From Alphaproteobacteria bacterium (GTDB lineage: Bacteria; Pseudomonadota; Alphaproteobacteria; UBA828): a stretch of 64,000 nt of DNA. This document shows, piece by piece, positions 38,390 through 64,000 of the stretch. The stretch's first letter is position 1. Each line of letters starts with the position of its first letter. The stretch lies in contig OZ243972.1 of assembly GCA_965214705.1 (NCBI GenBank), positions 3,680,001 through 3,744,000 on the forward strand, in the 5' to 3' direction. Made by a program: the position numbers and the translations under genes. Under the pieces are notes generated by a model, which saw nothing but the letters and a program-made list of their open reading frames with translations, searched no databases and was not told the origin of the DNA.

Positions 38390-38397
38390 GGCGGGCC

Positions 38398-40518: not shown

Positions 40519-40618
40519 TCCGTGCCTTTCCTCTGCCGGCCGCCATCTTGCGCGGCAGGCGGGCGAACGCAAGCGGGCAACCGCTGGACACGGGGCGAAG
40601 ATGGTGTATCGAACGTGT

Positions 40619-40822
40619 ATGGCACGCACCAACGTAGACATCGACGACGACGCCTGCGCAGAGGTCATGCGCCGCTACCGGCTGACGACGAAGCGGGAGG
40701 CGATCAACTACGCGCTGCGCACCCTCGCGGCGGAGCCACTCAGCGTCGACGAGGCCCGCCGGCTGCGTGGCTCTGGGTGGGAGGGCGATCTGGACGAGCT
40801 GCGTTCAGGTCGCGAATCCTGA
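40619..40822 (+). CDS. vapB: VapB-type antitoxin (orphan)
   Basis: [29 protein letters not shown]. Confidence 0.85.
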
Positions 40823-44647: not shown

Positions 44648-45280
44648 TTGCGCCATCGCTCGTTTTACCTCTCCGCATTCTCGGCTGAAGGCTTGAAAGT
44701 ATACGCCGATGCGATCCCGCCTGAAGATGAACTCGAGGAACCAGAGGAGGGGCAAGACTTTCGCAGTACTTTACGTCACCAAGCACAATTGACGGTGCTG
44801 GCCTTCAAGACCGGGGTCGCGGTCAGCGCAGACCTGTGGCTCGGTGGCTTCGACACCCACTCCAATCATGATCCCCTCCACGAATGGCTGTTCGGGAATC
44901 TCACCAGCGCGGTCGATTACTTGTGGAACTACGCCGAGGAGCATGGCGTCGCCGATCGCATGGTGGTGGTGATCGGCTCGGACTTCGGCCGCACCAACTT
45001 CTACAATTCCGGGAACGGCAAGGATCACTGGCCGATCGGGAGCTACGTGGTCATGGAGAAGAACCGGTCATGGACCGGGCGCGCGGTGGGCGAGACGGAC
45101 GGCCTGCACTTCGCCTACAAGATCGACCCCACGACGCTCCGCCGCGACGATACCTACGGGACGATCATCTACCCGAAGCACGTGCACAAGGCGCTGCGCC
45201 GCTACCTCGGCGTCGAGAACTCGGCAGGCGCTCTACGCTTCCCATTCAACAATACGGAGGATTTCGCTTTCTTTGTCTGA
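44648..45280 (+). pseudogene. DUF1501 family protein, C-terminal fragment
   Basis: GGFDTHSNHD, SDFGRT..N..GKDHW; N-terminus absent. Confidence 0.8.
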
Positions 45281-45414
45281 TTAGTCGTGGCGCTTGACAG
45301 TCAAATAAGCTGTGTAATCCCGTTGGCGAGTGCGCACGTTGGCATGGGTGTGATTCTCGTATGGCGATATGCCAGTCGTGATGGCGCTAAAGGATATGGG
45401 CTGGTTCATTTTGG

Positions 45415-46800
45415 TCAAGCAGCGAGTGCCAGGACTTCGGTTGGGCTGATGTTGTCGTTAGCTGGTCCGGATCGGGCGTCCATGAGCGCATCCCATGCCC
45501 GGTCGAAGAGGCCGGATTTGATCAGGGCGCGGAAGGTCAGAACCGCCTGCCCGCCGTCGATCCGCCAGCGCATGCCCGAGCGTTTCAAGCGCTGCGCGAC
45601 GAGGGTCTTGCAGGCCGCCTCGACCACACCCGAGCCGATGGCGATGCCCTCTTCCTTCAGGGCGTGGTAGCGCATCCGATGGCGGTGCTTTCGGAAGAAG
45701 GCCAGCTCGCGCTCGATCTCGGCCGGGTCCCCCTTTGCCCTGTCCAGGAGGTAGCGCAGTGCCCGGATCACCTTGTCGACGCCGCGGGGGTCGTGGCGCA
45801 GGATTTCGCGGTGCTTCTCGAACCAGTGGCGCGCCACCGCATGGTCAGAGGCCACGCGGAGATGCTCGCAAGCGTGCCAGAAGTCGATGACCTCGGTCTC
45901 GGGCGAGAGGCTTTCGAGGAAGGTCCAGTTGTCGGCGGCCCCGTCGGCGACGGCGCCGATCCTGATCTTCGGGCTCACACGGCGGATATGGGCGACCTCG
46001 CTTGCAAGTTGCGCTTTCAGCGCGGCCTTGCCGCTCTCGGGCATACGGCCGAGATAGAGGGTCTTCAGCCGTTGGCCCTCGGCGTCGTGGAAGGAGACCG
46101 TGCCGCAAGAGGCCTCGCGCCAGCACGCCTCGGCACGGCCGTCCTCGCCGGCCCGCAGCGCCACCATGACGCCGTCAAGGGAGACGGACGCGGTGACCGC
46201 ATCGGGCGGTATGCCCTGGGTTTCACGGATGCTGGCCAGCGTCTCCGGGGCGACGCTCTCCCAGTGCTCATGCATGCTCAGGGCCAGGCGCTGCAGCGTG
46301 CTCACCGACGGCGTCATTCCGCCCATTTTCGCGAAGAACTCCTCCGCTTCACGCGGCGTACAGTGGCCCATCATCATCAGCCCGAGCTGCGCCGCCGGCC
46401 GCGTCAGGTAGTCGTCGATGAGGCCCAGGCTCTCGTCCACCGGCACCAGCGACGTGCTGCTCGCGCCGCTGCGATAGCGCGCACGCCGATAGGTCACGGG
46501 ACCGAGCGTCGTCATGATCGTCTTCGGCGTCGCCGCCACCCGGACCCAGCTCTGTCCGTCGCGCTCGATCCGGCTCGCACCGTCGTCGCGGCTCTCGGCG
46601 AAGGCCCCAAGGAGCTTGCAACCCAAGCCGTTCATGGCGTCCCGCAGCCCCGTCTCAACCGTTTCGAACGTCTCGGCAGACGGGTCAGACCCAGCCTGTT
46701 CGCGACAGAACTCCACCACCTGGGCGACCGCTTCGGCGACTTCGGCAGGCAGGCCCAAAAGGTCGATGGACGAGGCGATGAGAGACTGCGACACTGGCAT
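45415..46800 (-). CDS. ISKra4-family transposase
   Basis: SLDGV, WREAS, ADGAADNW, DFWHACEHL, IGSGVVEAACK..RLKRSGMRW. Confidence 0.9.
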   Translation of the reverse strand: MPVSQSLIASSIDLLGLPAEVAEAVAQVVEFCREQAGSDPSAETFETVETGLRDAMNGLGCKLLGAFAESRDDGASRIERDGQSWVRVAATPKTIMTTLGPVTYRRARYRSGASSTSLVPVDESLGLIDDYLTRPAAQLGLMMMGHCTPREAEEFFAKMGGMTPSVSTLQRLALSMHEHWESVAPETLASIRETQGIPPDAVTASVSLDGVMVALRAGEDGRAEACWREASCGTVSFHDAEGQRLKTLYLGRMPESGKAALKAQLASEVAHIRRVSPKIRIGAVADGAADNWTFLESLSPETEVIDFWHACEHLRVASDHAVARHWFEKHREILRHDPRGVDKVIRALRYLLDRAKGDPAEIERELAFFRKHRHRMRYHALKEEGIAIGSGVVEAACKTLVAQRLKRSGMRWRIDGGQAVLTFRALIKSGLFDRAWDALMDARSGPANDNISPTEVLALAA

Positions 46801-46986
46801 GGGAACGCTCCTGATGTTGGGTCTGATGTTGGGTTGTCGGCGCGGCATCCTACCGCATCTCGCGGTGCGGAGCGTTCCCACCCACCACTGCTGGATGCCG
46901 CCGTTGTGACAAAATCCGGCCCTGCACCGGCCGATTGTCACGAAAACCCGATTCTGGCTGCCTACGGCCACCCGCCAATCGCGCTA

Positions 46987-46999
46987 AATCAATGACTTA
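46987..46999 (+). promoter_or_regulatory. IHF consensus site in the IS left end
   Basis: AATCAATGACTTA matches WATCAANNNNTTR; same site at 55477-55489 on the minus strand. Confidence 0.55.
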
Positions 47000-47000
47000 C

Positions 47001-48502
47001 GAGCCACTTGCAAAATTCCGCATTTGAGCGGGATTTTGCCGCCGTGGCGGTCAGATTGTCCTGGAAATCGGGACCGCTCTCTGTTCCTGTCGGGTTTCGG
47101 ACAACGTCGACGGAGAGGGCGGCCCCATGTCGCTGGGACAGACACTATCCGGATTCTGGCATCACATTCAAGCGGATCTTTTCCCGTGGCTTGAGGAGGA
47201 GCTCGGGCCGCTCGGCGAGAGGTACCGGCGCTTCGTCACCGTGCTTGAGCTTGCGCGGGTCGAGAGCTTCCTTCCCCATTTCCATGGCCTGCCCGGTCGG
47301 CCGGTCGAGGATCGGGCGGCCTTGGCCCGCGCCTTCATCGCCAAGGCGGTGTTCGACGTACCCACGACGCGCGCCCTGATCGAGCGCCTTGAGAACGACA
47401 AGACGCTACGCCGTCTCTGCGGCTGGACCTATGCCGCAGAGATCCCGAGCGAGGCGACGTTTTCGCGGGCGTTTGCGGAGTTCTCCGAGAGTGCGTTGCC
47501 CGCTCGCGTGCATGAGGCGCTGATCAAGCAGACCCTCGGAGACCATCTGGTCGGGCACGTCTCGCGCGACTCGACGGCGATCGAGGCGCGCGAGAAGCCT
47601 CAGCCCAAGCCCAAGGCGGAGAAGCCGAAGCGCAAGCGCGGCCGCCCGCGCAAGGGCGAGGAGCGGCCCAAGGAGGAGCGCCGCGTGAAACGCCAGCTCA
47701 CGATGAGCTTGCCCCAGATGCTCGACGACCTGCCGAAAGCCTGCGACGTCGGCACCAAGCGCAACGCCAGGGGCCATACCACATCGTGGATCGGTTACAA
47801 GCTGCACATCGACGCCGCCGATGGCGGCATTCCGATCAGTTGCATCCTGACGTCCGCCTCGCTGCACGACAGCCAGGCCGCGATCCCGCTGGCGAGTATG
47901 ACCGCCGACCGCGTCACCAATCTGTACGACCTCATGGACTCAGCCTATGACGCGCCCGAGATCGGCTGGCACAGCTACCTGCTGGGCCACGTCCCGATCA
48001 TCGACGTCAACCCTCGCGACAAGGAGTACAAGGAGGAGCTGGCGCGCGAGGCCAGGGCGCAGAGAGGCGTCGGTCACCGCCACCCGGCGGACGAGCGCTA
48101 CAACGAGCGCTCGAACATCGAGCGCATCAACGGTGGGCTGAAGGACAACTGCGGGGGCCGCCATGTCCGCGTGCGCGGCCATGCCAAGGTTCATTGCCAC
48201 CTGATGTTCGGCATCCTGGTGCTGACGGTCGACCAGCTGATGCGCCTCCTGGCCTGAGCGGCGCCTCCGTCGCTGTCACGCCGGCACGCCTCCCTCCGCG
48301 GAGGCGCAAAAAGCCATGTCCGCATCGCGACGGCGGGTCCAAAATGCGCCCGCATGGGCATCGGTTTGCGGCGAATCGGCGCCCCGGCGGCAGCCAGCGA
48401 CGTCCGCTCGTCCCGAAGTTCATGTTACGTTCCGACCGTCAATGTCCTCACGCCGGGCTCTCGGGAAAAGCAGACCGCGCCTGGGAGTTTTGCAAGTGGC
48501 TC
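47001..48502 (+). mobile_element. Nested DDE IS (IS5/IS1182-like)
   Basis: IRs GAGCCACTTGCAAAA(T/C)TCC; TSD TTAC at 46997-47000 and 48503-48506. Confidence 0.92.
47127..48257 (+). CDS. DDE transposase (DUF772/DDE_Tnp_1-like)
   Basis: PSEATFSR, SRDSTAI, GYKLH, MDSAYD, YNERSNIERING. Confidence 0.88.
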   Translation: MSLGQTLSGFWHHIQADLFPWLEEELGPLGERYRRFVTVLELARVESFLPHFHGLPGRPVEDRAALARAFIAKAVFDVPTTRALIERLENDKTLRRLCGWTYAAEIPSEATFSRAFAEFSESALPARVHEALIKQTLGDHLVGHVSRDSTAIEAREKPQPKPKAEKPKRKRGRPRKGEERPKEERRVKRQLTMSLPQMLDDLPKACDVGTKRNARGHTTSWIGYKLHIDAADGGIPISCILTSASLHDSQAAIPLASMTADRVTNLYDLMDSAYDAPEIGWHSYLLGHVPIIDVNPRDKEYKEELAREARAQRGVGHRHPADERYNERSNIERINGGLKDNCGGRHVRVRGHAKVHCHLMFGILVLTVDQLMRLLA

Positions 48503-48586
48503 TTACGATCGCCATGCCAGACCTACACCCCGTTGGCAGTCATCGTCAACTGAACATATTCTCAACGTTCCCCAGGTAATGCCGTC

Positions 48587-49495
48587 TCATGTAGTCACTC
48601 TGTCAACCAGGTGGCCATGGCAAGAGAGCTCCGAGTCGATGGCAAGATAGGGCGTGTCGCATCGCTCAAGCCATTCCAAGCCATTCCCTTGCTGTTGCAG
48701 CAACGCCACCGAAGCAATGGAACCTGCGACAACCGCCTGGGCCGCAACAACACTGACGCTCAACAGCCCGTCGATGGGCCAGCCGGTCCGGGGATCGATC
48801 AGGTGACTGTACCGTCGTCCTTCTATTTCCATGAATCGCTCATATCCGCCCGAGGTCGCGAGCGCGCCTTCCAAAAGCCAAACCGTGGCAATTGGCGAAT
48901 TCGTCTTCTGCGGATGTACGATGCCGATCGGCCAGGGCTCGTCACTCGCTTGCGGACCGACAATACAGATGTCACCGCCGAGATTGATTAGACCATGGCG
49001 AACACCAAGTTGCTTGGCGAGAACGGCAGTCGCATCGGCGGCGTATTCCTTCACAACGCCTCCAAAATCCAGCTCCATACCCGGCACAGACAGGTATACC
49101 TTCCCATCGGAATGTTGAACCTTGTCCCAACCCACTTTGATCAAACACGCGTCGATTTCTCCGTGCGACGGCAGGGTTTGCCGGCCTCGGTGCCACACGC
49201 GACGAAACACACCCGACGTGATGTCGAAAGCCCCATTGCTTTGCTCGTAGCAAACCGCTGCGTACTTTAGGAGGGAGGCCGTTTCCTCGTCTATACAGGT
49301 GGGTTCGACACCCGCAGCGCGGTTGATGGCCGTCGTCACGCTGTCTTCACTGTAACGAGAATACTTCCTTTCGAAGCGCCTGATTTCTTCAACACACTCT
49401 CGAATCGCGTGAGAACAATCCTCTTCCGTGGGTGCATATAGCCGCAGTTCGCATGGGCAGCCCATCGCAGTGAATCGATGCACGCACGGGACCAA
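48587..49495 (-). CDS. apbE: FAD:protein FMN transferase
   Basis: AMGC, SNGAFDIT, DFGGVVKEYAAD, INLGGD, ATSGGYER, HLIDPRTG; no signal peptide visible. Confidence 0.93.
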   Translation of the reverse strand: MVPCVHRFTAMGCPCELRLYAPTEEDCSHAIRECVEEIRRFERKYSRYSEDSVTTAINRAAGVEPTCIDEETASLLKYAAVCYEQSNGAFDITSGVFRRVWHRGRQTLPSHGEIDACLIKVGWDKVQHSDGKVYLSVPGMELDFGGVVKEYAADATAVLAKQLGVRHGLINLGGDICIVGPQASDEPWPIGIVHPQKTNSPIATVWLLEGALATSGGYERFMEIEGRRYSHLIDPRTGWPIDGLLSVSVVAAQAVVAGSIASVALLQQQGNGLEWLERCDTPYLAIDSELSCHGHLVDRVTT

Positions 49496-49498
49496 TGA

Positions 49499-50638
49499 CT
49501 AGAACCTGTACTCGAAAGCGACGGAGGCCAGCGTAAAGTTCAGCAGAGCGGGATGTTCAATACCGGACGTGAGCCCGTATTTTTCGCTGGCTCTATAGCG
49601 ATCAATGCTGATCGTGACCGACCAATCCGGAAAATGAATGACGCCCTTCAACCCCGCGGTCACTGCACCGTAGGCAGCCAGGCGAAAATCGCTGGACTGG
49701 GCAACATTCAGCGGCAGGCTAAAATCGTCGATTGAACGGAAAAAGTCGGCGTCTGTCTGACTGTAATAGCGCACATTTGGGACCAGCTGAAATGAAGCGC
49801 CAACGTTCTGATACCACGAGGTATGAAGTGTGTGAGAGGCGATTCCCCAGTCATCCGTGTAGTAGCGATAGTCGACGTGCAACGATGCGCGCAGATTGTC
49901 CAGGAAGCGTCGATAACGCACACCGAGCGCGCTCTCGGTTCGTTTTCTGGGCCGCACGTCGCGAAGCTTGTAGGGGTCCGACAGGTAGCCAGTGTGCGCG
50001 GTAACGCCAAGCCCGGTGAAAATGACGGAGGAGCGGTCGATCACTTGCGACACGCCGAGAGACAGCGATCGACTCTGCCTGCTTTCCTTCAGTATTCGCC
50101 CGAATGCAGCGGCATCGCTCGGCTCAATGGTGTCGCTTGCGTAGCTCAAGCCTGCCGACAATACGGTCAGAGGGCCATTAATTTCCCATTCGCCGGATAC
50201 GGCCACAGCGTCGGACGTATAGTCGTCTTCGTCTGATCGCGTCAGCGTCAATGCTGCGCTGCTATCCTCAAAATAACGGGTGCCCGTCACACTGACTTCG
50301 GTTCTCTCGTCCTGGATCGTGGCCCCGCTCATGATGAGTGTGGGCTTTCCATCGGGGCCCATCACCGTTGCCCACGGAGAGGCGCCAGACATTGTCTCTC
50401 GCGAGACGTCCAATCCTGCGCTCCATTCTTGGCCTACAGGAGTCAGCAACCTGAACTGATGAATGTCGATGTCGTATCGTTGATTGTCCCCGCTCAGATG
50501 CAAGTGCTCGGGGATGTCGGCCTCCTTGTAGTTGGGGGTGCCGATGGAGAGGCTCGTTTCCACTGGCTGTGAATCGGCAAACGCGGGAAGCGAGGTCGCG
50601 GCAATGGTCAATGCCGTCAGAGGAGAAAGGGACTTCAA
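49499..50638 (-). CDS. DUF3570 family outer-membrane beta-barrel
   Basis: Signal-like N-terminus, MSGASP and MSGAT motifs, GYLSDPYK, YRYYTDDWGI, RYYSQT.ADF, SSDFRL, terminal F; TTG start is an estimate. Confidence 0.85.
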   Translation of the reverse strand: MKSLSPLTALTIAATSLPAFADSQPVETSLSIGTPNYKEADIPEHLHLSGDNQRYDIDIHQFRLLTPVGQEWSAGLDVSRETMSGASPWATVMGPDGKPTLIMSGATIQDERTEVSVTGTRYFEDSSAALTLTRSDEDDYTSDAVAVSGEWEINGPLTVLSAGLSYASDTIEPSDAAAFGRILKESRQSRSLSLGVSQVIDRSSVIFTGLGVTAHTGYLSDPYKLRDVRPRKRTESALGVRYRRFLDNLRASLHVDYRYYTDDWGIASHTLHTSWYQNVGASFQLVPNVRYYSQTDADFFRSIDDFSLPLNVAQSSDFRLAAYGAVTAGLKGVIHFPDWSVTISIDRYRASEKYGLTSGIEHPALLNFTLASVAFEYRF

Positions 50639-50639
50639 C

Positions 50640-50861
50640 CTAGTTGCAACCGCATCCGGCGCCCGCCGTCTTCGCGCGACCGCGGGATGCTTCCTTGCTC
50701 TCGTAGACCTGTTCGTAAAGGGCACTCTGCAACATGTTCGGGTCCAACTGCATTTCCGGACGCGCGAGCGAGCCCCACTGCCAGGGAGAAACGGCCTCGC
50801 AAGCACCCAGCGCGAGTACGAGAGCCGCAACCGGCAGGAAGCGTCGCGCAAGGAGAATCAT
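50640..50861 (-). CDS. DUF4266 family small lipoprotein
   Basis: Lipobox LGAC, VSPWQWG.LA.PEM, ends GAGCGCN. Confidence 0.9.
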   Translation of the reverse strand: MILLARRFLPVAALVLALGACEAVSPWQWGSLARPEMQLDPNMLQSALYEQVYESKEASRGRAKTAGAGCGCN

Positions 50862-51373
50862 GGCTGATCCACCGGCTGCAGACCGAGGAGTTCGTCGATG
50901 TGGGCCCGTATGGCCCTCATATCGCCCGGCTTGAAGCCCTGATGCACCAGCGTGATCCGGCCTTTGGGGTCGATTACGAACGACGTCGGCATGGCCAGCA
51001 GACCATACGCCTCCGCGATTTTGCCATGCGGATCGCTCAAGTTATCGTAATTGACGGAGTAGCGACTCAAGAACCTGGTCGCATCGTCGATCCACTCGTC
51101 CACGCTGATGGCGATGACCGCCAAGCGCTCCTCCCCCAATTCGTATTGCATGACGATCATCTCCGGGATCGAGACTCGACACGCGATGCACCAGGATGCC
51201 CAAAAATCGAGGTAGCGAACTTTGCCGTGGCTTGCCGACAAGGACTTGATTTCCTGGCCATCCAATGTCGGCAAGGTGAAATCGGGAGCCAAATCTCCTT
51301 CCGAGACGGCCGATGCTGCAGCGGTGAACAGGACGCTCAGCGAGAGAATCACCGATAGCAGCAATGCTCTCAT
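50858..51373 (-). CDS. TlpA-family thiol-disulfide reductase
   Basis: APDFTL, DFWASWCIAC, MPTSFVID. Confidence 0.92.
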   Translation of the reverse strand: MRALLLSVILSLSVLFTAAASAVSEGDLAPDFTLPTLDGQEIKSLSASHGKVRYLDFWASWCIACRVSIPEMIVMQYELGEERLAVIAISVDEWIDDATRFLSRYSVNYDNLSDPHGKIAEAYGLLAMPTSFVIDPKGRITLVHQGFKPGDMRAIRAHIDELLGLQPVDQP

Positions 51374-51734
51374 GGACGATCTCTTTCGACGGTCCACGCT
51401 ACTCCAGATTCGCAACAGACCGCATGCTCGATCGAGTATGGCGTGCCAATTGTACCTAGCGGCGCTCGCCGAGGTCAACTCTGCTTGCCTGCGCGATGTG
51501 CTCGCAAGCAGGGGCCAGAGAGGCCTCGTTCACTTCGCTCTACCTCCGACTATTGCAGGCCGTGAAGACGCCTGCGAATTGATCAGTTGGCCGACCGTTG
51601 AGTCAAGTAATTGCTTCCCGTCGTTGAAGTGTCGTCTATACTTGCGGCAAAACTTAAGCACAGGCAACTCTGCTGATCGCCGTGGCGTACATGCGACGGC
51701 TGTCCCGGATCTCATCGCTGCCGCGGGGAGCACA

Positions 51735-52292
51735 ATGAACTGGCTACTGTCGGGCTGGCGGCGCTGGCTTCTCGCGGGTTTGGCCTGCTGCGCCACCATC
51801 GCGGCGGCGTACGCGACGCCCGTTCACGTGCCGGAAGTCGATGTGACGGTTCGCTCGGCGCCCGTCGACGCGTTGTCCGGCCACGTTGCCGCTCTGGCAG
51901 CCGGAGAAGATCTTGGGTCCCTGCTCGCGAGCCGGCGCTGGGGCAATGTTCAGCCGTCATCGAAAGAGCCCGTCGAACCGAGCACGCCGGACCCGCAATC
52001 TGCTCCGAGGATCAATCCCGAACTCCTGAAGATGAACTTTGTCGGGTTGATTACCGTGCAGGATCAGCGCACAGTGTTGCTTGCCGTTCCGAACGTCGGA
52101 ATTGAGAGATTTGTCGCCGGCGATACACTGCCGGACGGCCGCGTTCTGGTCTCCGTGACGGACAACAGTCTCACGATCAAAGCGGAGGATCTTCCGGAAG
52201 AGGAGCTGTTGTTGTTCCCCTCCATCGCGAATGACGCACAGCGGGCTGGGAGATCCGAGGCACATGACCAAGATGTTGGGGAGGCGAGATGA
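51735..52292 (+). CDS. Putative T2SS GspC-like protein
   Basis: Single N-terminal TM; FVGLI..GDTLPDG.VLVSV HR-domain-like pattern; overlaps gspD start. Confidence 0.55.
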   Translation: MNWLLSGWRRWLLAGLACCATIAAAYATPVHVPEVDVTVRSAPVDALSGHVAALAAGEDLGSLLASRRWGNVQPSSKEPVEPSTPDPQSAPRINPELLKMNFVGLITVQDQRTVLLAVPNVGIERFVAGDTLPDGRVLVSVTDNSLTIKAEDLPEEELLLFPSIANDAQRAGRSEAHDQDVGEAR

Positions 52293-54397: not shown

Positions 54398-54606
54398 TTT
54401 CCGCTTCGGACGTGTGGTAGGTGCGACGCATTTTCCTGGTGCGCAAATTCTATTTGCTGAGAGTGTTGGCCTCTCGCCGTACGTTGTGCCTCCGAGCCGG
54501 TGATCGATGGGCTCCGCCAGACACGGCTCTATGCTCGAGGAATGCTCCGGATGACAAGGGGTATTCAGAGCCCGAGCAGTGAGCCGACCGTAAGCCCGAA
54601 GGTCGG

Positions 54607-55305
54607 ATGCCGGCTGTGCCGTGTGGCGGAACAACCGCCGTGATTAGCGCGCGCTATTGCTGCCAGGACTCGGGCTTCAGGCTCGTATCCCCTGACTTGG
54701 TGCCTCTGATCCCGTGGCTTATGCGTCGCGGCCGATGCCCTCATTGTGGCGCGAAAATCTCGCCCGTCGTTCCGGTTCTGGAATTCGCGATGATCGCTGT
54801 GGTGATCGTCACCGCTGTGCTGGTGCGAGACGATGCACAAGCCGCGGCAGGATGCTTCCTGGGATGGCTGCTCGTTCTGCTGGTGATCGCCGATTTGCGG
54901 CACCAAATTCTACCAGACAGCCTGACGGCAACAGTGCTGGCGAGCGGCTTGCTGGCGGCGCTGTTCCTGCCGTCACCGGGCTTCACCGAGGCGCTGATCG
55001 GAGCGGCGATCGGCGGCGGTAGCTTCTTCTTGCTGCGCTTCCTCTATTTCCGCTACCGCGGCATCGAGGGGCTCGGCCTGGGCGATGTGAAGTTGATGGC
55101 CGGACTGGGCGCCTGGCTCGGCCCGGCTTGGCTGCCGCCCCTGGTCCTCATCGCTGCCGTGGCTGGACTCATGGTCGTTCTGCTGCAGTCCTGGCGCCGG
55201 GGAACCGGGGTTCCCGCGACGAGCAGGGTCGCCTTCGGCGCCTATCTCGGCGGTGTGGCCCTGCTGCTCTGGGGCCTAAAATCGACGGGTGTGTGGGAGT
55301 GGTAG
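54607..55305 (+). CDS. gspO: Prepilin peptidase A24, N-terminus degenerate
   Basis: GRCPHCG, ADLRHQILPD, EGLGLGDVKL, AFGAYL; first TM and first CxxC are missing. Confidence 0.8.
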   Translation: MPAVPCGGTTAVISARYCCQDSGFRLVSPDLVPLIPWLMRRGRCPHCGAKISPVVPVLEFAMIAVVIVTAVLVRDDAQAAAGCFLGWLLVLLVIADLRHQILPDSLTATVLASGLLAALFLPSPGFTEALIGAAIGGGSFFLLRFLYFRYRGIEGLGLGDVKLMAGLGAWLGPAWLPPLVLIAAVAGLMVVLLQSWRRGTGVPATSRVAFGAYLGGVALLLWGLKSTGVWEW

Positions 55306-55451
55306 ATGCTTGAATCCCCGTGCCGTCCGAGCGCGCGCCTCTCGTCAGACGCAGGCGTAATTGCTACGGTATGTGAACCGACACCAGACGCTGGAGTCCA
55401 ACCGCCAATGCCCAAGTCGCCGGAACGCGTGTCGGACGCCGCAACATCGGG

Positions 55452-57130
55452 GGGTGTAGGTCTGGCATGGCGATCGTAAGTCATTGATTTAGCGCGATTG
55501 GCGGGTGGCCGTAGGCAGCCAGAATCGGGTTTTCGTGACAATCGGCCGGTGCAGGGCCGGATTTTGTCACAACGGCGGCATCCAGCAGTGGTGGGTGGGA
55601 ACGCTCCGCACCGCGAGATGCGGTAGGATGCCGCGCCGACAACCCAACATCAGACCCAACATCAGGAGCGTTCCCATGCCAGTGTCGCAGTCTCTCATCG
55701 CCTCGTCCATCGACCTTTTGGGCCTGCCTGCCGAAGTCGCCGAAGCGGTCGCCCAGGTGGTGGAGTTCTGTCGCGAACAGGCTGGGTCTGACCCGTCTGC
55801 CGAGACGTTCGAAACGGTTGAGACGGGGCTGCGGGACGCCATGAACGGCTTGGGTTGCAAGCTCCTTGGGGCCTTCGCCGAGAGCCGCGACGACGGTGCG
55901 AGCCGGATCGAGCGCGACGGACAGAGCTGGGTCCGGGTGGCGGCGACGCCGAAGACGATCATGACGACGCTCGGTCCCGTGACCTATCGGCGTGCGCGCT
56001 ATCGCAGCGGCGCGAGCAGCACGTCGCTGGTGCCGGTGGACGAGAGCCTGGGCCTCATCGACGACTACCTGACGCGGCCGGCGGCGCAGCTCGGGCTGAT
56101 GATGATGGGCCACTGTACGCCGCGTGAAGCGGAGGAGTTCTTCGCGAAAATGGGCGGAATGACGCCGTCGGTGAGCACGCTGCAGCGCCTGGCCCTGAGC
56201 ATGCATGAGCACTGGGAGAGCGTCGCCCCGGAGACGCTGGCCAGCATCCGTGAAACCCAGGGCATACCGCCCGATGCGGTCACCGCGTCCGTCTCCCTTG
56301 ACGGCGTCATGGTGGCGCTGCGGGCCGGCGAGGACGGCCGTGCCGAGGCGTGCTGGCGCGAGGCCTCTTGCGGCACGGTCTCCTTCCACGACGCCGAGGG
56401 CCAACGGCTGAAGACCCTCTATCTCGGCCGTATGCCCGAGAGCGGCAAGGCCGCGCTGAAAGCGCAACTTGCAAGCGAGGTCGCCCATATCCGCCGTGTG
56501 AGCCCGAAGATCAGGATCGGCGCCGTCGCCGACGGGGCCGCCGACAACTGGACCTTCCTCGAAAGCCTCTCGCCCGAGACCGAGGTCATCGACTTCTGGC
56601 ACGCTTGCGAGCATCTCCGCGTGGCCTCTGACCATGCGGTGGCGCGCCACTGGTTCGAGAAGCACCGCGAAATCCTGCGCCACGACCCCCGCGGCGTCGA
56701 CAAGGTGATCCGGGCACTGCGCTACCTCCTGGACAGGGCAAAGGGGGACCCGGCCGAGATCGAGCGCGAGCTGGCCTTCTTCCGAAAGCACCGCCATCGG
56801 ATGCGCTACCACGCCCTGAAGGAAGAGGGCATCGCCATCGGCTCGGGTGTGGTCGAGGCGGCCTGCAAGACCCTCGTCGCGCAGCGCTTGAAACGCTCGG
56901 GCATGCGCTGGCGGATCGACGGCGGGCAGGCGGTTCTGACCTTCCGCGCCCTGATCAAATCCGGCCTCTTCGACCGGGCATGGGATGCGCTCATGGACGC
57001 CCGATCCGGACCAGCTAACGACAACATCAGCCCAACCGAAGTCCTGGCACTCGCTGCTTGACCAAAATGAACCAGCCCATATCCTTTAGCGCCATCACGA
57101 CTGGCATATCGCCATACGAGAATCACACCC
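55452..57130 (+). mobile_element. ISKra4-family IS copy 2
   Basis: Same ends as copy 1; TSD ACATCGGG at 55444-51 and 57131-38. Confidence 0.93.
55676..57061 (+). CDS. ISKra4-family transposase (identical translation to copy 1)
   Basis: ORF-track proteins identical; RBS AGGAG before ATG 55676. Confidence 0.9.
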   Translation: MPVSQSLIASSIDLLGLPAEVAEAVAQVVEFCREQAGSDPSAETFETVETGLRDAMNGLGCKLLGAFAESRDDGASRIERDGQSWVRVAATPKTIMTTLGPVTYRRARYRSGASSTSLVPVDESLGLIDDYLTRPAAQLGLMMMGHCTPREAEEFFAKMGGMTPSVSTLQRLALSMHEHWESVAPETLASIRETQGIPPDAVTASVSLDGVMVALRAGEDGRAEACWREASCGTVSFHDAEGQRLKTLYLGRMPESGKAALKAQLASEVAHIRRVSPKIRIGAVADGAADNWTFLESLSPETEVIDFWHACEHLRVASDHAVARHWFEKHREILRHDPRGVDKVIRALRYLLDRAKGDPAEIERELAFFRKHRHRMRYHALKEEGIAIGSGVVEAACKTLVAQRLKRSGMRWRIDGGQAVLTFRALIKSGLFDRAWDALMDARSGPANDNISPTEVLALAA

Positions 57131-59772
57131 ACATCGGGCGGGTATTCCGGGCAGCGCCTTGCCGAACTGCTGGTTGAGAGAAACGATGTTCAGCAGGCCG
57201 ACATGGACAAAGCCCTGCAGATACAACGCTCGATCGGCGGCAGGCTCGACGCCGTACTTCTGCGGACCGGCACCATTTCCGAAGACCTTCTTCTTCAAAG
57301 AATCGCCGAAATACAGGGAGCGGAATATCTCCGCAACGCGGAGGAGCTTCCCGGAAAGAAAGACGTCTATGAGTTCATTTCCGAGGCACCGATCAAGAAG
57401 GAGTGGTTTCTCGACAATGGCGTGCTGATGTGGCGCCGCAACGGCCAGCTCTTTTGTATCGCGCGGGACATCATGGATCATGGCGTTCTGGCCGTTCTCA
57501 GCTACTTTTATCCGGACGAAACGGTCAAGTATTGTCTCGCTACCGGCCACCAGATCGACCATCTTCTCGAGTTCGTGAAGAAGGAGCGGGCGAGCCAGGC
57601 TCCCTACTCCGGCGACGATACCAGGCAGCTGACGGAAATGGCCGAAGAGGCGCCGATCATCGAGTTCGTGAACAATCTTCTTGCGCAGGCCGTCTACGTG
57701 AAGGCCTCGGACATCCACATCGAACCGACGGAGGAGCATTTCCTGGTTCGCATGCGCGTCGACGGCGTGCTGCAAACCAAGCAGACGCAACCGGTCGAGC
57801 GGTTTCCGGCCGTCGCATCCCGCATCAAGCTCGTATCGGGCCTCGACATTGCGGAACGGCGGCTGCCCCAGGACGGGCGGATCTCGACCCGGATTGCCGG
57901 CCAGGAGATGGACATCCGTGTGTCGACGGTGCCCTGCGCCTTCGGGGAGTCCGTGGTCTTGCGGATGCTGGCGAAGGAGCGGGCGGACCTTGTCCTGACG
58001 AATCTGGGCATGGAGGCGGATCATCTCTCCCAGTTCCGGCGCTGGTTCCAGACCAGCAGCGGCATCATTCTGGTGACCGGACCAACGGGGTCGGGGAAAT
58101 CCACGACGCTTGCCTCGGCGCTCACGGAGATCGACGACGGCGTCAAGAAGCTCATCACGGTGGAGGACCCGGTCGAGCACCAGATGCCCAACATCACCCA
58201 GATTCAGACGCACGCGGAGATCGGCTATACCTTCGCCCGCGCCTTGCGCGCCATTCTGCGTCAGGATCCGGACGTCATCATGATCGGCGAGATCCGCGAC
58301 CTGGAGACGGCGGAAATCGCCATCCGTTCGGCCATGACTGGCCACCTGGTGCTGTCCACGGCCCACACCAACGACGCGCTGTCCAGCTTCACGCGACTGA
58401 TCGACATGGGCGTGGAGCCGTTTCTGGTCGCTGCATCGGTGCGCGGGGTCCAGGCGCAGCGGCTCGTGCGCAGGGCATGTCCGCGTTGCTCGGAGCCCAT
58501 CGATCCGCCCTCCGCATTCGGCGAGAGCCTCGAGCGAATCCCTCCGGACTTGCTCGGCGACCGCTGGGTGACGGTCCACGGCTGCGACGCCTGCGAACGG
58601 ACCGGCTACACCGGCAGGACCGGCATCTACGAACTCGTTCCGGTGACCGGCGAACTCCAGGAGCTCATCGTTTCAGGGGCGAAACTCAATGAACTGAAGA
58701 CGCTGGCCTTGCAGCAGGGTCATCGAACCCTGCTGGAAGACGGCCTGCTCAAGGCTTCCCATGGTCGCACCACTGCGGAAGAAGTGACCCGCCTCACGCT
58801 CGAGGAGTGATCCACGATGCGGGAGTATCAGTACGAGATCGTCGATCGCAGCGGTCGAGTGGTGAAGGGAGTCGCTGAGGCCGCCTCTGTTTCCGACCTG
58901 GTTCGCGAGCTGAGTGCCGAGGGCCATACCGTGGTCGAGGTGACGGAGCCCCGCGCAACGCGGCCTCCGCTGTTGCGCCGCCGGCTCGGCGCCCAAGACC
59001 AGATGATGGCACTTCACGAATTGGCGACACTGCTTGAATCGGGTGTCTCGCTCGGCAATGCGGTGCAGGCTCAAGTCAGCGGCACCCGGCATCCCTCGCT
59101 GGCCCAGGCCTTCGAGGCCATGTCCAGGGGGCTCATGCGCGGAGAGAGCTTTCTCGAAGCCCTGCGCGCCGGACAGTTGGCTCTTCCGGACTACGTTTAT
59201 CGCCTGGTGGAGGCCGGCGAATTGAACGGTCAGCTCGCGGGGGCTTTGCGCCAGGCCGTCGATCAGATGCAGTACGATCAACGGGTCGCCACGGAGATGC
59301 GCGGCGCGCTGCTCTACCCGTCGATCCTGATCGTCGCCGGCTGCGCGGCAGTGCTCCTCGTCTTTGTCTTCGTGATCCCTCAATTCGCCAATTTGCTCGA
59401 GACCGGAAATGAACTGCCCGTGCTGGCGGAAGCCGTCATGCACACCGGTCTCTGGTTCAATGCCAACGGCTGGCAGCTGGCAGCAGCTCTTGCCGTCATC
59501 ACCCTTGCCATTGCTCTGCTCGTACGGCGCGAAGGTGTCCGTCAGCGAGTCCGGGACAGCCTCTCCACGCTGCCGATCCTTTCCGACTGGTTTACCGAGA
59601 CGGATACCGCAAAGTGGGCTTCACTCATGAGCGCCATGCTGGCGAGTCGGGTGGGTCTCCTGGACGCGCTGGGCCTTGCCGCAAGCAGCGTGCGAATCAC
59701 CCGACGCAAGGCAATGCTGGAGCAGGCGACGAGCGACGTCCGCAGCGGCGCCTCGCTTTCGGCGGCACTAGA

Positions 59773-61932
59773 CCCAAGTTGGCACTTTTGTCCTACCCAT
59801 GTCCTTTATCGTGTTGATGTAACGCGATATTTCTCTCGGCCGGTTCCAACATGGCACTACATTTTGTTGGATTCTGTCAGTTCGGCAGGCGGGTCCTCGT
59901 GCGGTGGATGGCGGGTTCCACGCCCGCCGCCGAGGAGATTGCGGCAACCTCAGCGGCCGGGCGCGTGTCCTGTCGATTGACGATCAAGGTGCCGTCGGTC
60001 TGGCGCAGGCGCGTGGTGATCCGCACCCAGGTCCGCATGCTCTCGCGGATCGATGCCCAGCACTTGTGGATGTCCCGCGCGGCCAGCCGGGAACGGATCA
60101 GATGCACGGCGTGGTAGGCCAGCACGGCGATCAGCAGGTGGGCCGCGATGCGCCGGTCGAGCTGGTGCCAGATCGGGCGAAGGCCGAGTTCGGATTTCAG
60201 GCTTCGGAATGTCGCCTCGATATCCGTGATCCGCCAGTACGTCCGCAGGACCGTCTCGATATCCCAGTCGACGTGGCTGGTGCGCAGCACATAGGCGCCC
60301 GCGCCCTCATCGGCCTCGTCGTATCGCGGCCTGCGCTTGAAGCGCACGGCGGTGGCATTGGGGCCGGTGTCCGCCTTCTCGACCGTGATCTCGTAGTGCC
60401 TGGCGACGGCGGAGAAGCGCTGCTTGAGGCGGCCTATGCTCTCCAGCACCTTGTCGTAGCGCTTGAGGCGGCCCTTGACCGCAAGGCCGCCGTGGAGCCT
60501 TTGCAGCGCCGCCTCGAAGCGGTTCCGCCTCAGGCCGATGATCGCGTTCTCGGCCTTCTTCTTGCCCTCGCTGACGACGTAGAGCCGCGCCTCGCCGTCC
60601 TCGCTGGCAAGCCGCCAGGCCCGCACCTCGTGGCGCGCGCTGGTGATCAGCAGGGCCTCGGGTCCGCCCTCGGGCGGCGCAGGCCTGGCACCGCGGCTGA
60701 CCGCGATCCAGTCGTAGCCCTGCTCGCCCAGCCAGACGATGTTCTCCTCGGTGGCGATGCCCGCGTCCATGACCACCGTGGGCTTCGCCGCCGTGCCGCC
60801 GCATACCGCCTCGAGCCGGGCCAGCGCCTCGTGCAGCGTGCCCGGCTCGCTCACGTTGCCGGGCAGGATCTCGCAACTGCGCGGGAAGCCCGCACCGTCG
60901 AGCGCCAGCGCCAGCGTGATGAGGGGACAGTCGTCGCGCTTCTGCTTGGAGCGCCCGAACCTGGGAAGCTCGCCGTCGGTGTGGCCGTGGTAGTGGACGT
61001 TGGTGAGATCGTAGAAGGCGATCGTCTCGGGCAGGTCGAGCAGCGCGCGCTCACGGTTGAACAGTTCCCTCTGGATGGCGGCCCGGTGGCGCCAGAGCAG
61101 GTCGCCGATGCGGTAGAGCGTCTTGCGCCGCAGCGCCTTGCGGTCGCCCTCCAGGCCCAGGAGCTCGGCGGCCGCGCTGTCGTGGCGGAGCCAGCGGCTG
61201 GTATCACGCTCGCTGGCGGGATGGACCATCCTGGCGACGATCAGCGCGCTGGCGATGCGTCCGTCGCGGCCCTTGATGTCGAGGCCGTGGAGGATTTCGG
61301 CGAAGCCAAGGTCGTCGAGGGCCTTGAGGCACAGGCGCTCGCAGCCGACGGTGCGCGGGTTCTCATGCTCCAGGGTATCGAGGTCGACGGTGGCGATCTC
61401 GGGCTTGCGCGCCTCTTCCTGCATCGCCTCGGCACGGAACCCCCTGGCCCTGAGCTTGGCGACGATGTCCTCGGCTGCGGCCTGCACGTCCGGGACGGCT
61501 TGGAGCAGCGGCGGGCGGCCGTGCAGCAGCGCCTCGGCGAGTTCGGCCACTTCGCGCCATTTCTCCTTCGGCACCGGATAGTCGGTGCCGAGGTTGAGGA
61601 GCGTGCGCTGCCTGACCTTGTCGCCGATGCGCTGGGAGAGCACGAGGCGATGGCTTCGGACGGGCTTGCCGTCGGTGGTGTGGGTCTTGGTTGCCCTGAT
61701 GAACATGTCGCCCGTCGCGAGATTGTTGCGAGGGGCCAAGATTTGTCGGCTTGGGGTCTGGGGTCAAGGGAAAATCGTCAATACCTAACAACTCCTGGCA
61801 CTACAACGCGCTTCCAGCGCCTCAATTACACATATAGTGGCATCATCTCGGAGCTACCCCAATATGTGGTACTTCGGTCCGCAAAATATGGGCAGACCGG
61901 CATTGAGCAACCGGAAAAAGTGCCAACTTGGG
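59773..61932 (-). mobile_element. IS1634-family element
   Basis: 17-bp IR CCCAAGTTGGCACTTTT; TSD TAGA at 59769-72 and 61933-36. Confidence 0.92.
59877..61706 (-). CDS. IS1634-family transposase
   Basis: FYDLTN, GRSKQKRDD, VMDAGI, YVLRT, IEATFRSLKSELGLRPIWHQ. Confidence 0.9.
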   Translation of the reverse strand: MFIRATKTHTTDGKPVRSHRLVLSQRIGDKVRQRTLLNLGTDYPVPKEKWREVAELAEALLHGRPPLLQAVPDVQAAAEDIVAKLRARGFRAEAMQEEARKPEIATVDLDTLEHENPRTVGCERLCLKALDDLGFAEILHGLDIKGRDGRIASALIVARMVHPASERDTSRWLRHDSAAAELLGLEGDRKALRRKTLYRIGDLLWRHRAAIQRELFNRERALLDLPETIAFYDLTNVHYHGHTDGELPRFGRSKQKRDDCPLITLALALDGAGFPRSCEILPGNVSEPGTLHEALARLEAVCGGTAAKPTVVMDAGIATEENIVWLGEQGYDWIAVSRGARPAPPEGGPEALLITSARHEVRAWRLASEDGEARLYVVSEGKKKAENAIIGLRRNRFEAALQRLHGGLAVKGRLKRYDKVLESIGRLKQRFSAVARHYEITVEKADTGPNATAVRFKRRPRYDEADEGAGAYVLRTSHVDWDIETVLRTYWRITDIEATFRSLKSELGLRPIWHQLDRRIAAHLLIAVLAYHAVHLIRSRLAARDIHKCWASIRESMRTWVRITTRLRQTDGTLIVNRQDTRPAAEVAAISSAAGVEPAIHRTRTRLPN

Positions 61933-62196
61933 TAGAGAAGCGCCGCGCGCTCACGCCCACCGGTTACAGCCTGCTTCGCATCGGCGAGCAATCGGGGCAG
62001 CTTGCCGAGATGCTGAGGGCGCTCGCGACGCTCTATGACGAGAACAGCCGCCGGCGCATGAAGCGGTTCCTCACCCTGATCGAACCGCTGGCCGTCGTGC
62101 TGGTCGGTGGATTCCTCGGTGTCATCATGATCGGAATCATTCTTGCGATCACCAGTGTCAACGATATCGCGTTTTGACCGGACGGAGAGATCCGCG

Positions 62197-62739
62197 ATGC
62201 CCGGCACAGAACCGCAGTCAACGCGCAAGCGGGGGACCCGGAAAGCAACGCCGCGCCGGCCGCGCCCGGGCAAGGGACGCCGGGCATCCAAGGCGGCGGT
62301 CGCAGGTTCCCCCAATGCAGGATTCACCCTCATCGAGCTCATGGTGGTTCTCGTCATACTCGGCCTGCTGGCGGGGCTGGTCGGACCACAACTCTTCGGC
62401 AGGATCGACACGTCGAAGGTGAAGACGGCCGAGACTCAAGTCAAAATGCTGCGTGGCGCCCTGCAGGCGTTTCGCCTGGACGTGGGCAGATATCCCACCA
62501 CTGCGGAAGGGCTCGCCGCCCTGGTCCGCCCCCCGCCGGAGGCCACAGACTTCTGGAGCGGACCCTATCTCGACGGCGAGGTGCCGGAAGACCCGTGGAA
62601 CGCGCCCTATCGATACCTTTATCCGGCAGACAACCTTCAGGGCTTCGCTCTCTATTCGCTCGGCGCCGACTCGCAGGATGGTGGAGACGGCACCGATGCC
62701 GATGTCGGCTACCTTCCGACAGAGCCGCAGTCGCGCTAG
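62197..62739 (+). CDS. gspG: T2SS major pseudopilin
   Basis: GFTLIELMVV, RLDVGRYPTT.EGL, W.GPYL, DPW..PY.Y, SLGAD. Confidence 0.95.
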   Translation: MPGTEPQSTRKRGTRKATPRRPRPGKGRRASKAAVAGSPNAGFTLIELMVVLVILGLLAGLVGPQLFGRIDTSKVKTAETQVKMLRGALQAFRLDVGRYPTTAEGLAALVRPPPEATDFWSGPYLDGEVPEDPWNAPYRYLYPADNLQGFALYSLGADSQDGGDGTDADVGYLPTEPQSR

Positions 62740-63401
62740 TGACCCGTTCGAGACGTTTCTATCCGTTTGCGCCGCACTCCACACGTCATGACCGGACTTG
62801 TCCCGGCCACCCGCGGGTTATTTTTGCGGTCGGTACAAAGAACGTGGATGCCCGGATACCCGGAACGGGTCCGGGCATGTTCGGGCATGACGGTGGTGAT
62901 GCGGCGGAGACTGCGCACGACCGCCACCGCTCCGGCCGATCGAGCCGCACTCGTGCAGCGGGCGGCTTCACGTTGATAGAGATGCTGTTCGTCCTGTTTC
63001 TCGTGGCGATGATCACCGCGCTGGTGGCGCCCAATACGGAGCGCCTTTACGCAAGCATCGCAGGCAAGACGGACCGCGAATACATCCTGGACCAGTTCGC
63101 GAGCCTCGGCCGAATAGCCCTACGTCACGGTCAGGCCTATGTGGTCTCTCCCCCCGCACCCGATGGGCCGGAGGCGGCCGCAGCCTCATCGGCAGCGCGC
63201 GCCGCCCCGCCGTTCCACGCGGATACCAAGCCCTATGTCATCGACCTGCCGGAGGGTTGGACCATCGACCTTGACCGGCCCCTCGTGATCGGTGCGAACG
63301 GTGTCTGCTTCGGGGCCGAGGTCACCCTGCTTCACGAAGGCAGGATCGAAGCGCGTCTCGCTCTCGAAGCGCCCTACTGCCACGTCGCGGCGCATGCCTA
63401 G
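62739..63401 (+). CDS. Minor pseudopilin (GspH-like) with extended leader
   Basis: GFTLIEMLFVL; in-frame GTG overlaps gspG TAG (alternative ATG at 62877). Confidence 0.75.
   Translation: MTRSRRFYPFAPHSTRHDRTCPGHPRVIFAVGTKNVDARIPGTGPGMFGHDGGDAAETAHDRHRSGRSSRTRAAGGFTLIEMLFVLFLVAMITALVAPNTERLYASIAGKTDREYILDQFASLGRIALRHGQAYVVSPPAPDGPEAAAASSAARAAPPFHADTKPYVIDLPEGWTIDLDRPLVIGANGVCFGAEVTLLHEGRIEARLALEAPYCHVAAHA
62784..62892. repeat. Second REP/RIME-like palindromic element, inside the gspH 5' region
   Basis: CGTCATGACCGGACTTGTCCCGGCCACCCGCG ... GTGGATGCCCGG ... GGGCATGACG, homologous to 1463-1552. Confidence 0.85.
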
Positions 63402-63828
63402 CCAGCCTTCCTCGGCAGGGTCACTGTCTGCAGGCTTCTCGATCCTGGAGACCATGGTTGCGATGGTGATCTTCGCCGGCGCCGCAACGGCGCTCTACGG
63501 CCTCTTCAACACCAACCTGATCGCGCTGGGACGCGCTCACGACGCGTCGCGACAGATGTCGGCGGCCCATCATGCGGTCGAATACCTCGCCGGCATCAAT
63601 CCGCATGAGGAGCGCGCGGGGCAGATAAGCGTGGATGGGATCGACATCGTCTGGTCCGCGACGCTGCTGGAGCCGGTGCGCCAGAGCCAGACCGTGACCG
63701 CAGAGCGCGGGTACTTCGAGGTTGGCCTCTACGAGATCTTGTTCGAGCCGCGTGAAGACGGACGGTCGCTGGGCACCTGGCGATTGCGGGTCCCCGGTTA
63801 CAGGAAAGTGCGGGAGCCGGTGCCGTGA
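63394..63828 (+). CDS. Minor pseudopilin (GspI-like)
   Basis: GFSILETMVAMVIF. Confidence 0.8.
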   Translation: MPSQPSSAGSLSAGFSILETMVAMVIFAGAATALYGLFNTNLIALGRAHDASRQMSAAHHAVEYLAGINPHEERAGQISVDGIDIVWSATLLEPVRQSQTVTAERGYFEVGLYEILFEPREDGRSLGTWRLRVPGYRKVREPVP

Positions 63829-64000
63829 CGCGTCGCCGCCGAAGGAGGACAACCCAGGCTGCGCCCCGGGGGCTGACCATGGTGGAAATGCTCGTCGTCC
63901 TGGTTCTGGTCTCGCTCCTGGGCACTCTCGTGATCCAAGGTACGGGTTTCTTCCTCGGCCAGTTCGCAACGGTGAAGCGCGTTCACCGCGAGGCGGCCCA
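63825..64000 (+). CDS. Minor pseudopilin (GspJ-like), truncated by window edge
   Basis: GTG overlapping the previous stop; RGLTMVEMLVVLVLVSLL. Confidence 0.75.
   Translation, partial: MTRRRRRRTTQAAPRGLTMVEMLVVLVLVSLLGTLVIQGTGFFLGQFATVKRVHREAA

Follow-up and report, generated by a model that had tools for sequence, protein, structure and literature searches.

Probable island history behind a flavinylation cluster that stands head-to-head with broken type II secretion genes in an alphaproteobacterium

Why does a gene cluster for covalent flavin attachment stand head-to-head with genes of a type II secretion system (T2SS)? The question is raised by a stretch of 64,000 nucleotides from an alphaproteobacterium of the UBA828 lineage (GenBank assembly GCA_965214705.1, contig OZ243972.1, positions 3,680,001 to 3,744,000), which is called the window in the following. 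The genes tlpA, DUF4266, DUF3570 and apbE (the module) lie on its minus strand, and the T2SS genes diverge from them on the plus strand. An earlier note on this DNA had read both halves as one mobile unit for extracellular redox chemistry, in which a dedicated T2SS exports the partner enzymes of a flavin-bearing conduit. According to our analysis, the locus is probably the decaying remnant of an acquired gammaproteobacterial block that joins three separately conserved units, and the adjacency of the T2SS reflects the history of the island. Without its insertion sequences (IS), the block would measure about 25 kb and consist of the flavinylation cluster, an Xps-like T2SS with the C, D and O genes first, and a DUF1501 gene with the genes of two CXXCH proteins. 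The T2SS would adjoin the module through co-transfer from one donor and subsequent rearrangement, and not because it serves the module. Moreover, recent IS insertions appear to be destroying the T2SS, with the module so far remaining whole. The pairing is not a conserved partnership and should therefore not be used for assigning a function to DUF3570.

The evidence comes in the first place from surveys of gene neighbourhoods, which the earlier note had proposed as a check. An alignment of 29 DUF3570 homologues led to 491 relatives in species-representative genomes, of which the best 80, spanning 42-91% identity, were inspected with flanks of up to 10 kb. By using tblastn with the low-complexity filter switched off, tlpA was found at 69, DUF4266 at 74 and apbE at 72 of the 80 DUF3570 loci. 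At least 3 kb of sequence was available past tlpA at 57 and past apbE at 61 of these loci. Genes matching the T2SS proteins of the window were present at a single one of the 57 informative loci (L009) and absent from the other 56, and the junction with this GspD clade, for which the survey had been suggested, recurs only there, in the same island. The reverse survey started from an alignment of 27 GspD homologues and gave 72 metagenome loci, 30 of which extend beyond the T2SS by 3 kb or more to one or both sides; the module genes had no match at any of the 72. At one of these loci (L097, GspD 80% identical) the same C-D-O-E-F order is found, and a peptidase-like open reading frame (ORF), not tlpA, is located upstream of gspC. 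Among plasmids, only two weak DUF3570 matches were obtained, both from Hymenobacter (28-29% identity) and neither in a T2SS context.

The single recurrence, L009, is the 20.7-kb contig G041:C124. It carries the island free of IS elements, with the module diverging from gspC to gspM and the latter genes converging on DUF1501 and two CXXCH proteins. The genome bin G041 contains two rpoB genes, which are 99% and 64% identical to that of the host, as well as two T2SS loci, and the contig with the rpoB gene of 99% amino acid identity is syntenic to the host genome at 90-94% nucleotide identity. The bin mixes a close relative of the host with a gammaproteobacterium, and G041:C124 can be assigned to neither organism. 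The contig was considered as an independent second case of the pairing and rejected as such: over module and T2SS it is 88-92.6% identical to the window at the nucleotide level. L009 thus represents this island once more, perhaps in a congener.

At the level of whole genomes, 40 assemblies with DUF3570 were searched for GspD. G041, G042, G044 and G047 possess orthologues with 60% identity or more, and nine other genomes have homologues of 41-45% identity; in two of these nine, both genes are on one chromosome, 370 kb (G068) and 1.9 Mb (G052) apart. No GspD match at an E-value of 1e-60 was found in 25 of the 40 genomes, many of which are incomplete bins. In G044 the halves are separated by 40 kb, and the T2SS, in the order E-F-G...K-L-M-C-D, is oriented in the direction of the module; G042 and G047 carry them on separate contigs. 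(An identity of contig G042:C92 with the contig of locus L010 was considered and rejected, the lengths being 56,587 and 54,678 bp.) Among 53 species genomes of the donor-like family, the GspD clade is present in 12 and DUF3570 in 3, and 9 of the 12 T2SS-bearing genomes lack DUF3570. The head-to-head arrangement is a single evolutionary event and not a recurrent pattern. These counts, together with the breakage of both T2SS copies of the host described below, leave the proposal of a dedicated T2SS that exports partner enzymes of the module unsupported.

Several observations weigh against an explanation by island history. The arrangement has been kept in the island copy of the window (copy A), in the remnant of a second copy (copy B) and in G041:C124, at 85-95% amino acid identity, and has therefore survived some divergence. 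Within the donor-like family, all three DUF3570 genomes possess the T2SS clade, as compared to 9 of the 50 genomes without DUF3570, although the three are close kin and do not represent independent cases. The two loci of G044 are situated within 40 kb of each other on a chromosome of 6.4 Mb. Furthermore, several DUF3570 and GspD database proteins may share contigs, as judged only by equal sizes of the longest contig, namely 13,394 bp (P0027 and P0206), 50,021 bp (P0030 and P0128), 66,124 bp (P0048 and P0208), 83,947 bp (P0005 and P0253) and 144,038 bp (P0044 and P0241), and the halves may be more closely linked in some sister lineages. Genes for CXXCH proteins and DUF1501 accompany the module (28 and 12 of the 80 loci, respectively) as well as the T2SS, which is compatible with a looser functional neighbourhood. 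Finally, identical IS copies exist elsewhere in the genome; the breakage must therefore be recent and is a poor guide to past function.

The origin of the two halves was traced in the relatives of the host. A search of 40 relatives, including 20 from the host genus, detected neither DUF3570 nor a close GspD, and the best non-self match of GspD reached 29-36% identity. The comparison supports the view that the island is foreign to the host genus. In quick IQ-TREE phylogenies with 16 rows for DUF3570 and 18 rows for GspD, the window and G041 fall inside a clade with G042, G044 and G047, with SH-aLRT values of 100 (DUF3570) and 96 (GspD). Both halves nest with the same relatives, and thus their origins are congruent and co-acquisition from one gammaproteobacterial clade is likely; incongruent origins, which would have refuted the reading of the earlier note, were not observed. 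This reading is supported as regards a foreign origin, but the adjacency is limited to one island family.

The module itself is an intact copy of a published ApbE/DUF3570 flavinylation cluster. Its four genes are tightly packed on the minus strand and, according to Pfam, all uninterrupted. The tlpA-like gene (50858-51373) encodes a protein of 171 amino acids with a signal peptide and a WCIAC motif. This protein has a thioredoxin fold and matches the AhpC-TSA (PF00578) and Redoxin (PF08534) families (E 9e-24) as well as Thioredoxin_8 (PF13905), whereas PF13899 is not among its Pfam matches; its ResA/TlpA/DsbE-like NCBIfam matches are each under the cut-off. The DUF4266 lipoprotein (50640-50861; 73 amino acids; PF14086, E 9.9e-17) has its lipobox cysteine at position 21 and ends in GCGCN, and C21, C70, G71 and C72 do not vary among 45 sequences. 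The DUF3570 gene (49499-50638; PF12094, E 6.8e-59) starts with TTG and encodes a predicted outer-membrane barrel of 379 amino acids with two flavinylation motifs, SGAS and SGAT. Among 29 DUF3570 sequences S85, G86, A87 and S88 as well as S105, G106 and A107 are invariant and T108 is nearly so, the numbers referring to the 380-residue translation. The flavin transferase gene apbE (48587-49495; 302 amino acids) matches PF02424 at residues 11-278 (E 4.4e-70). DUF3570 and DUF4266 are each single-copy in the host genome by tblastn. The genome has one DsbD_TM gene, which is remote from the module and adjoins another TlpA-like match (C1:1206770-1207348). A readthrough or fusion of apbE and DUF3570 was also considered, as the genes are in the same frame with a stop and one codon between them (49495-49501). 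This idea was dropped because in L011, L016 and L017, as judged by tblastn start coordinates, the two genes no longer stand in this relation of frames.

The ApbE-dependent flavinylation of a DUF3570 protein at two sites has been described for Chlorobium luteolum by Meheust et al. (2021, eLife 10:e66878; PMC8238504), who also proposed that the electrons come from DsbD through a thioredoxin-like protein. The same study counts 316 clusters without DsbD and names PF13899 as the thioredoxin-like family. The cluster of the window resembles these clusters in having the same four families in one operon, two [S/T]GA[S/T] sites, a C-terminal CXC in DUF4266 and no DsbD alongside. It differs in that the thioredoxin-fold protein belongs to AhpC-TSA/Redoxin/Thioredoxin_8 rather than to PF13899 and that ApbE is devoid of an export signal. 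The main text of that study never uses the word "secretion", and accordingly no T2SS neighbour is described there. Moreover, the literature that we searched (on DUF3570, and on DUF1501 with type II secretion), as far as its texts were available, contained no published link between a DUF3570 module and a T2SS. That the module itself is published had escaped the earlier note.

The way in which the module could work is suggested by structure prediction. A confident AlphaFold2 model of DUF3570 (pLDDT 83.1, pTM 0.80) is all-beta; it has 16 long strands, and the protein ends in phenylalanine. Its Foldseek list is headed by outer-membrane barrels and includes FadL, the PelB barrel, OmpG, PgaA, BcsC and MtrB, the last as 6r2q_B at rank 39. 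We infer from this model that DUF3570 forms a 16-strand outer-membrane barrel. With the usual barrel topology, the SGAS and SGAT motifs would sit on a long hairpin (residues 73-94/100-123), well above the periplasmic turns. A complex prediction for mature DUF4266 with DUF3570 scored 0.87, and the best of three controls scored 0.01; of 80 solved complexes, 58 came up to the mark for this score, as did 2 of 110 mismatched pairs, but these counts are a rough guide only, since own alignments were used. The contact agreement between the runs was at least 51% and the pLDDT of the partner at least 58. The predicted contacts of DUF4266 involve alternate residues of strands all round the barrel and hence its lumen side, and the CGC tail is outside the confident contacts. 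DUF4266 is thus predicted to plug the DUF3570 barrel, which is new here. The plug-and-barrel complex LptDE and the porin-cytochrome complex MtrAB are known from outer membranes. The predicted pair is like them in that a partner is threaded into a barrel lumen, and it might thereby convey electrons or thiol chemistry through the outer membrane. It is unlike them in having no sequence relationship to either, and in combining covalent flavins with Cys-X-Cys instead of multi-haem cytochromes.

In the relay that may follow from this arrangement, ApbE would put flavin on DUF3570 at its two [S/T]GA[S/T] sites, as shown for the Chlorobium protein, and the DUF4266 lipoprotein would plug the barrel from within, whereby its invariant C-terminal CGC would stay free. 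TlpA, reduced by DsbD/CcdA encoded elsewhere in the genome, would pass reducing equivalents to the CXC pair of DUF4266, and these would move on to the flavins and an acceptor. The conduit from TlpA through the CXC lipoprotein to a flavinylated barrel, as it was drawn in the earlier note, agrees with the model given in the main text of PMC8238504, and the predicted complex supports a plug-in-barrel relay from thiol to flavin. A CXC lipoprotein inside a flavinylated barrel is a testable structural proposal for the DUF3570 system.

The flavin transferase of the module poses a puzzle of its own. Only 9 residues precede its AMG motif and an in-frame stop is located two codons upstream; by inspection of the sequence, neither a signal peptide nor a lipobox was seen on this ApbE. 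The lead before AMG is no longer than 21 residues at 46 of 52 measurable related loci (L009-L088). However, its substrate DUF3570 is equipped with a Sec signal and, by prediction, forms a barrel in the outer membrane.

The divergent T2SS is real but broken. A region of 361 bp (51374-51734) separates tlpA from the first plus-strand gene, in line with the roughly 360 bp of the earlier note, and Pfam families support the two diverging gene sets. A small transmembrane protein of 185 amino acids occupies the GspC/XpsN position (51735-52292); it has no Pfam or NCBIfam match and is conserved by position, its homologue always being directly upstream of gspD in relatives. The gene is followed by gspD, encoding a secretin of 702 amino acids (52289-54397; Secretin, E 2.4e-43, and Secretin_N), the prepilin peptidase gene gspO (54607-55305; Peptidase_A24 and A24_N_bact), the ATPase gene gspE (57203-58810; 535 amino acids; T2SSE, E 4.1e-128), and gspF, which is interrupted, with a T2SSF match on each side of an IS (58817-59771 and 61934-62177). 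The major pseudopilin gene gspG (62143-62739; T2SSG, E 5e-35, and N_methyl) precedes three further pseudopilin-like ORFs (62595-64000), the last of which runs past the end of the window. These three ORFs, named gspH, gspI and gspJ in the earlier note, match N_methyl only, and the breakage by IS elements had not been part of its description. Past the window, a putative gspK (T2SSK_1st, 27.9 bits at a cut-off of 26.2), gspL without a curated family and an IS91-split gspM with a weak GspM_XpsM match are followed by convergent genes for DUF1501 and CXXCH proteins.

In Xanthomonas, the xps genes are arranged in the order E-F-G-H-I-J-K-L-M-N-D. The T2SS of the island is similar to Xps/Gsp systems with respect to GspD, GspE, GspF, GspG, the prepilin peptidase and the pseudopilins, all matched by Pfam, as well as the putative GspK and the weak GspM_XpsM match, and the sister-clade loci have the order E...M-C-D. 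Unlike these, the gspC-like gene, gspD and gspO precede gspE in the island and in L097. Further differences are that the gspC-like gene and gspL match no curated family and that gspF and gspM are split by IS elements.

The insertions that broke the system can be read precisely. An element of the ISLre2/UPF0236 type (55465-57131, plus strand; transposase 55505-57061) lies between gspO and gspE, flanked by the 8-bp target duplication ACATCGGG, and the site is empty in copy B. This element and another one at 45345-47011 are each 1667 bp long, 100% identical and inverted relative to each other. An inversion between them was considered and rejected, as both copy B and G041:C124 show gspC-D-O and gspE-F-G in collinear arrangement with the window. 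An IS4-like element of 2.16 kb (59772-61933) with inverted repeats and a DDE_Tnp_1 transposase (59877-61739, minus strand) has inserted into gspF with a 4-bp target duplication, TAGA; the whole gene of 398 codons is present in copy B and G041:C124. Outside the window, gspM is split by an IS91-family element of 2.7 kb (C1:3746841-3749509, window-equivalent 66841-69509) with a Y2 transposase and a tyrosine recombinase. The plus-strand ORFs of 66841-69509 had no Pfam match, the genes of the element being on the other strand. The secretin GspD, GspE, GspG and the prepilin peptidase are present, but an intact inner-membrane platform of GspF, GspL and GspM was found in neither island copy, and there is no intact gspM anywhere in the host genome.

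Copy B (C1:1991572-2002137) shows how differently the same block can decay. It contains the same T2SS at 97-100% nucleotide identity without the insertions between gspO and gspE and in gspF. A deletion of 2.3 kb, with 6-bp microhomology at the junction, has removed the equivalent of window positions 49279-51557, that is the 5' end of apbE, DUF3570, DUF4266, tlpA and half of the intergenic region, of which 51374-51557 is lost and 51558-51734 is kept. An IS91-family element (C1:1988902-1991570), 99.96% identical to that of copy A, cuts off gspL of copy B after residue 194 of 362. This element carries about 85 nucleotides of gspM in inverted orientation, and 27 GspM residues remain. The two copies exemplify a newly acquired envelope block that is being dismantled by a burst of IS elements in different ways.

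The genes past the T2SS give rise to the alternative that survives best, namely that the real local partner of the module is the convergent trio of DUF1501 and the two CXXCH proteins, with the T2SS being a passenger brought in by island rearrangement. We consider this unlikely. The trio, convergent to the T2SS, consists of a full DUF1501 gene whose product has a Tat signal and of two large CXXCH proteins, big825 and big892, encoded on the minus strand (window-equivalent 71024-76245; L001:8024-13245). The idea is favoured by copy B, in which the full DUF1501 gene converges directly on the apbE remnant, and by L010, L012 and L014, where it converges on apbE in the same way; the DUF1501 fragment in the window is the remnant of such an arrangement, displaced by a nested IS. 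Within 10 kb of the 80 DUF3570 loci, DUF1501 occurs at 12, big825 at 11 and big892-like genes at 28; none of the 72 metagenome loci of the GspD clade has a match to DUF1501 or big892. However, 52 of the 80 loci have no homologue of any of the three proteins, the convergent orientation excludes co-transcription, and the big892-like family is multi-copy: its N-terminal domain has 34 matches in G042, 26 in G044 and two in the host genome. The only further matches are, for big825 (825 amino acids, one CXXCH), weak ones to PSCyt3 and CBM60, and for big892 (892 amino acids, two CIACH motifs) a weak RoxC-like stretch (28 bits at a cut-off of 900) and, in the ESM Atlas, only leads below 0.9 (DUF1592/PSD4-like).

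That all parts form one functional unit appears quite unlikely to us. The T2SS would export folded, cofactor-loaded partners, with DUF1501 and the two CXXCH proteins as candidates, and electrons would arrive via TlpA, DUF4266 and the barrel. It speaks for such a unit that module, T2SS and trio are together in copy A, copy B and G041:C124, that DUF1501 has a Tat signal while big825 carries one and big892 two CXXCH motifs, that in G042 and G044 the T2SS as well as the module have big892-like neighbours, and that both halves have their nearest relatives in common. The surveys argue in the opposite direction: they show the adjacency at a single one of the 57 informative DUF3570 loci and at none of the 72 GspD loci, the latter also being devoid of DUF1501 and big892 matches, and 9 of 12 T2SS genomes of the donor-like family lack DUF3570. 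In addition, a domain with 26 matches in G044 and 34 in G042 makes neighbourhood weak evidence, and neither a secretion signal nor a substrate can be read from the sequence. A related set of genes has been reported in a preprint (Haft 2023; 10.1101/2023.06.07.544157), which places DUF4266, DUF3570 and TlpA genes side by side near some JDVT-CTERM proteins and states that related cysteine-bearing sorting signals need a T2SS. Unlike these neighbourhoods, DUF1501, big825 and big892 have no match to the JDVT-CTERM models of NCBIfam, and no CPBP protease was seen in the locus. The more specific proposal that the T2SS was recruited beside the thiol-to-flavin conduit in order to export the Tat-signal DUF1501 and the CXXCH proteins, all as one movable block, is distinctly improbable; if true, it would amount to a flavin-based, cytochrome-assisted extracellular redox route that is mobile between bacteria as one block.

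In some metal reducers, redox lipoproteins reach the cell surface by way of a T2SS. That the T2SS of the island would similarly assemble or surface-expose the module itself, for instance by placing the DUF4266 lipoprotein, is highly improbable: the adjacency in this island and the lipoprotein predicted in the barrel lumen are opposed by 56 of 57 informative DUF3570 loci at which tblastn with the T2SS proteins of the window found no such system, by the 25 of 40 DUF3570 genomes (many of them incomplete bins) without a GspD match at the above E-value, and by a module that is intact in a host genome without intact gspM.

The left border of the island, for which decay of an acquired block remains the preferred explanation, is likewise marked by truncated genes and IS elements. 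A tyrosine-integrase remnant (43785-44696, plus strand), recognised as such in the earlier note, consists of the N-terminal domains Arm-DNA-bind_3, Phage_int_SAM_3 and Phage_int_M, and Pfam detected no catalytic Phage_integrase domain. It matches a second remnant near copy B at 92.9% nucleotide identity, and the integrase fragment has 135 tblastn matches in the host genome. Joined to the remnant is a C-terminal DUF1501 fragment (44648-45280, plus strand; profile positions 247-351 of 390), about half a gene, for which homology to copy B begins at 44684. It is 88% identical at the amino acid level to residues 214-420 of the full 421-residue DUF1501 past the T2SS. The DUF1501 gene that the earlier note saw converging on apbE is this C-terminal half only, and 3.2 kb of nested IS lie in between. 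This composite (45345-48527) occupies the space between the 3' ends of both genes and comprises the second ISLre2/UPF0236-type element (transposase 45415-46971, minus strand), into which an IS1182/IS5-like element (47012-48501; transposase 47127-48257, plus strand) has inserted. The last 26 nucleotides of the outer element recur at 48502-48527, which accounts for a 30-nucleotide inverted repeat; the composite is flanked by the duplication GTTGGCA, and its site is empty in copy B. The host genome has undergone a large IS expansion: tblastn gave 31 matches to the ISLre2-type transposase, 40 to that of the IS1182/IS5-like element and 117 to the IS4-like one. For the ISLre2 type, 22 among the 25 matches listed cover the full length with 100% identity.

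No tRNA gene was found within the window, and a clean empty site was not detected with the tested flanks, BKACE on the left (42624-43550) and hydantoinase A past the island on the right, as a distance of 105 kb to 1.9 Mb separates their orthologues in six of the seven congeners compared, and the seventh, G005, has them on different contigs. Hydantoinase/oxoprolinase genes are found on both sides of the island (window 36554-40668; L185:2882-4930). The family is very large in the genus: at an E-value of 1e-100, the host has 41 matches, and each of twelve congeners that were searched has 14-37.

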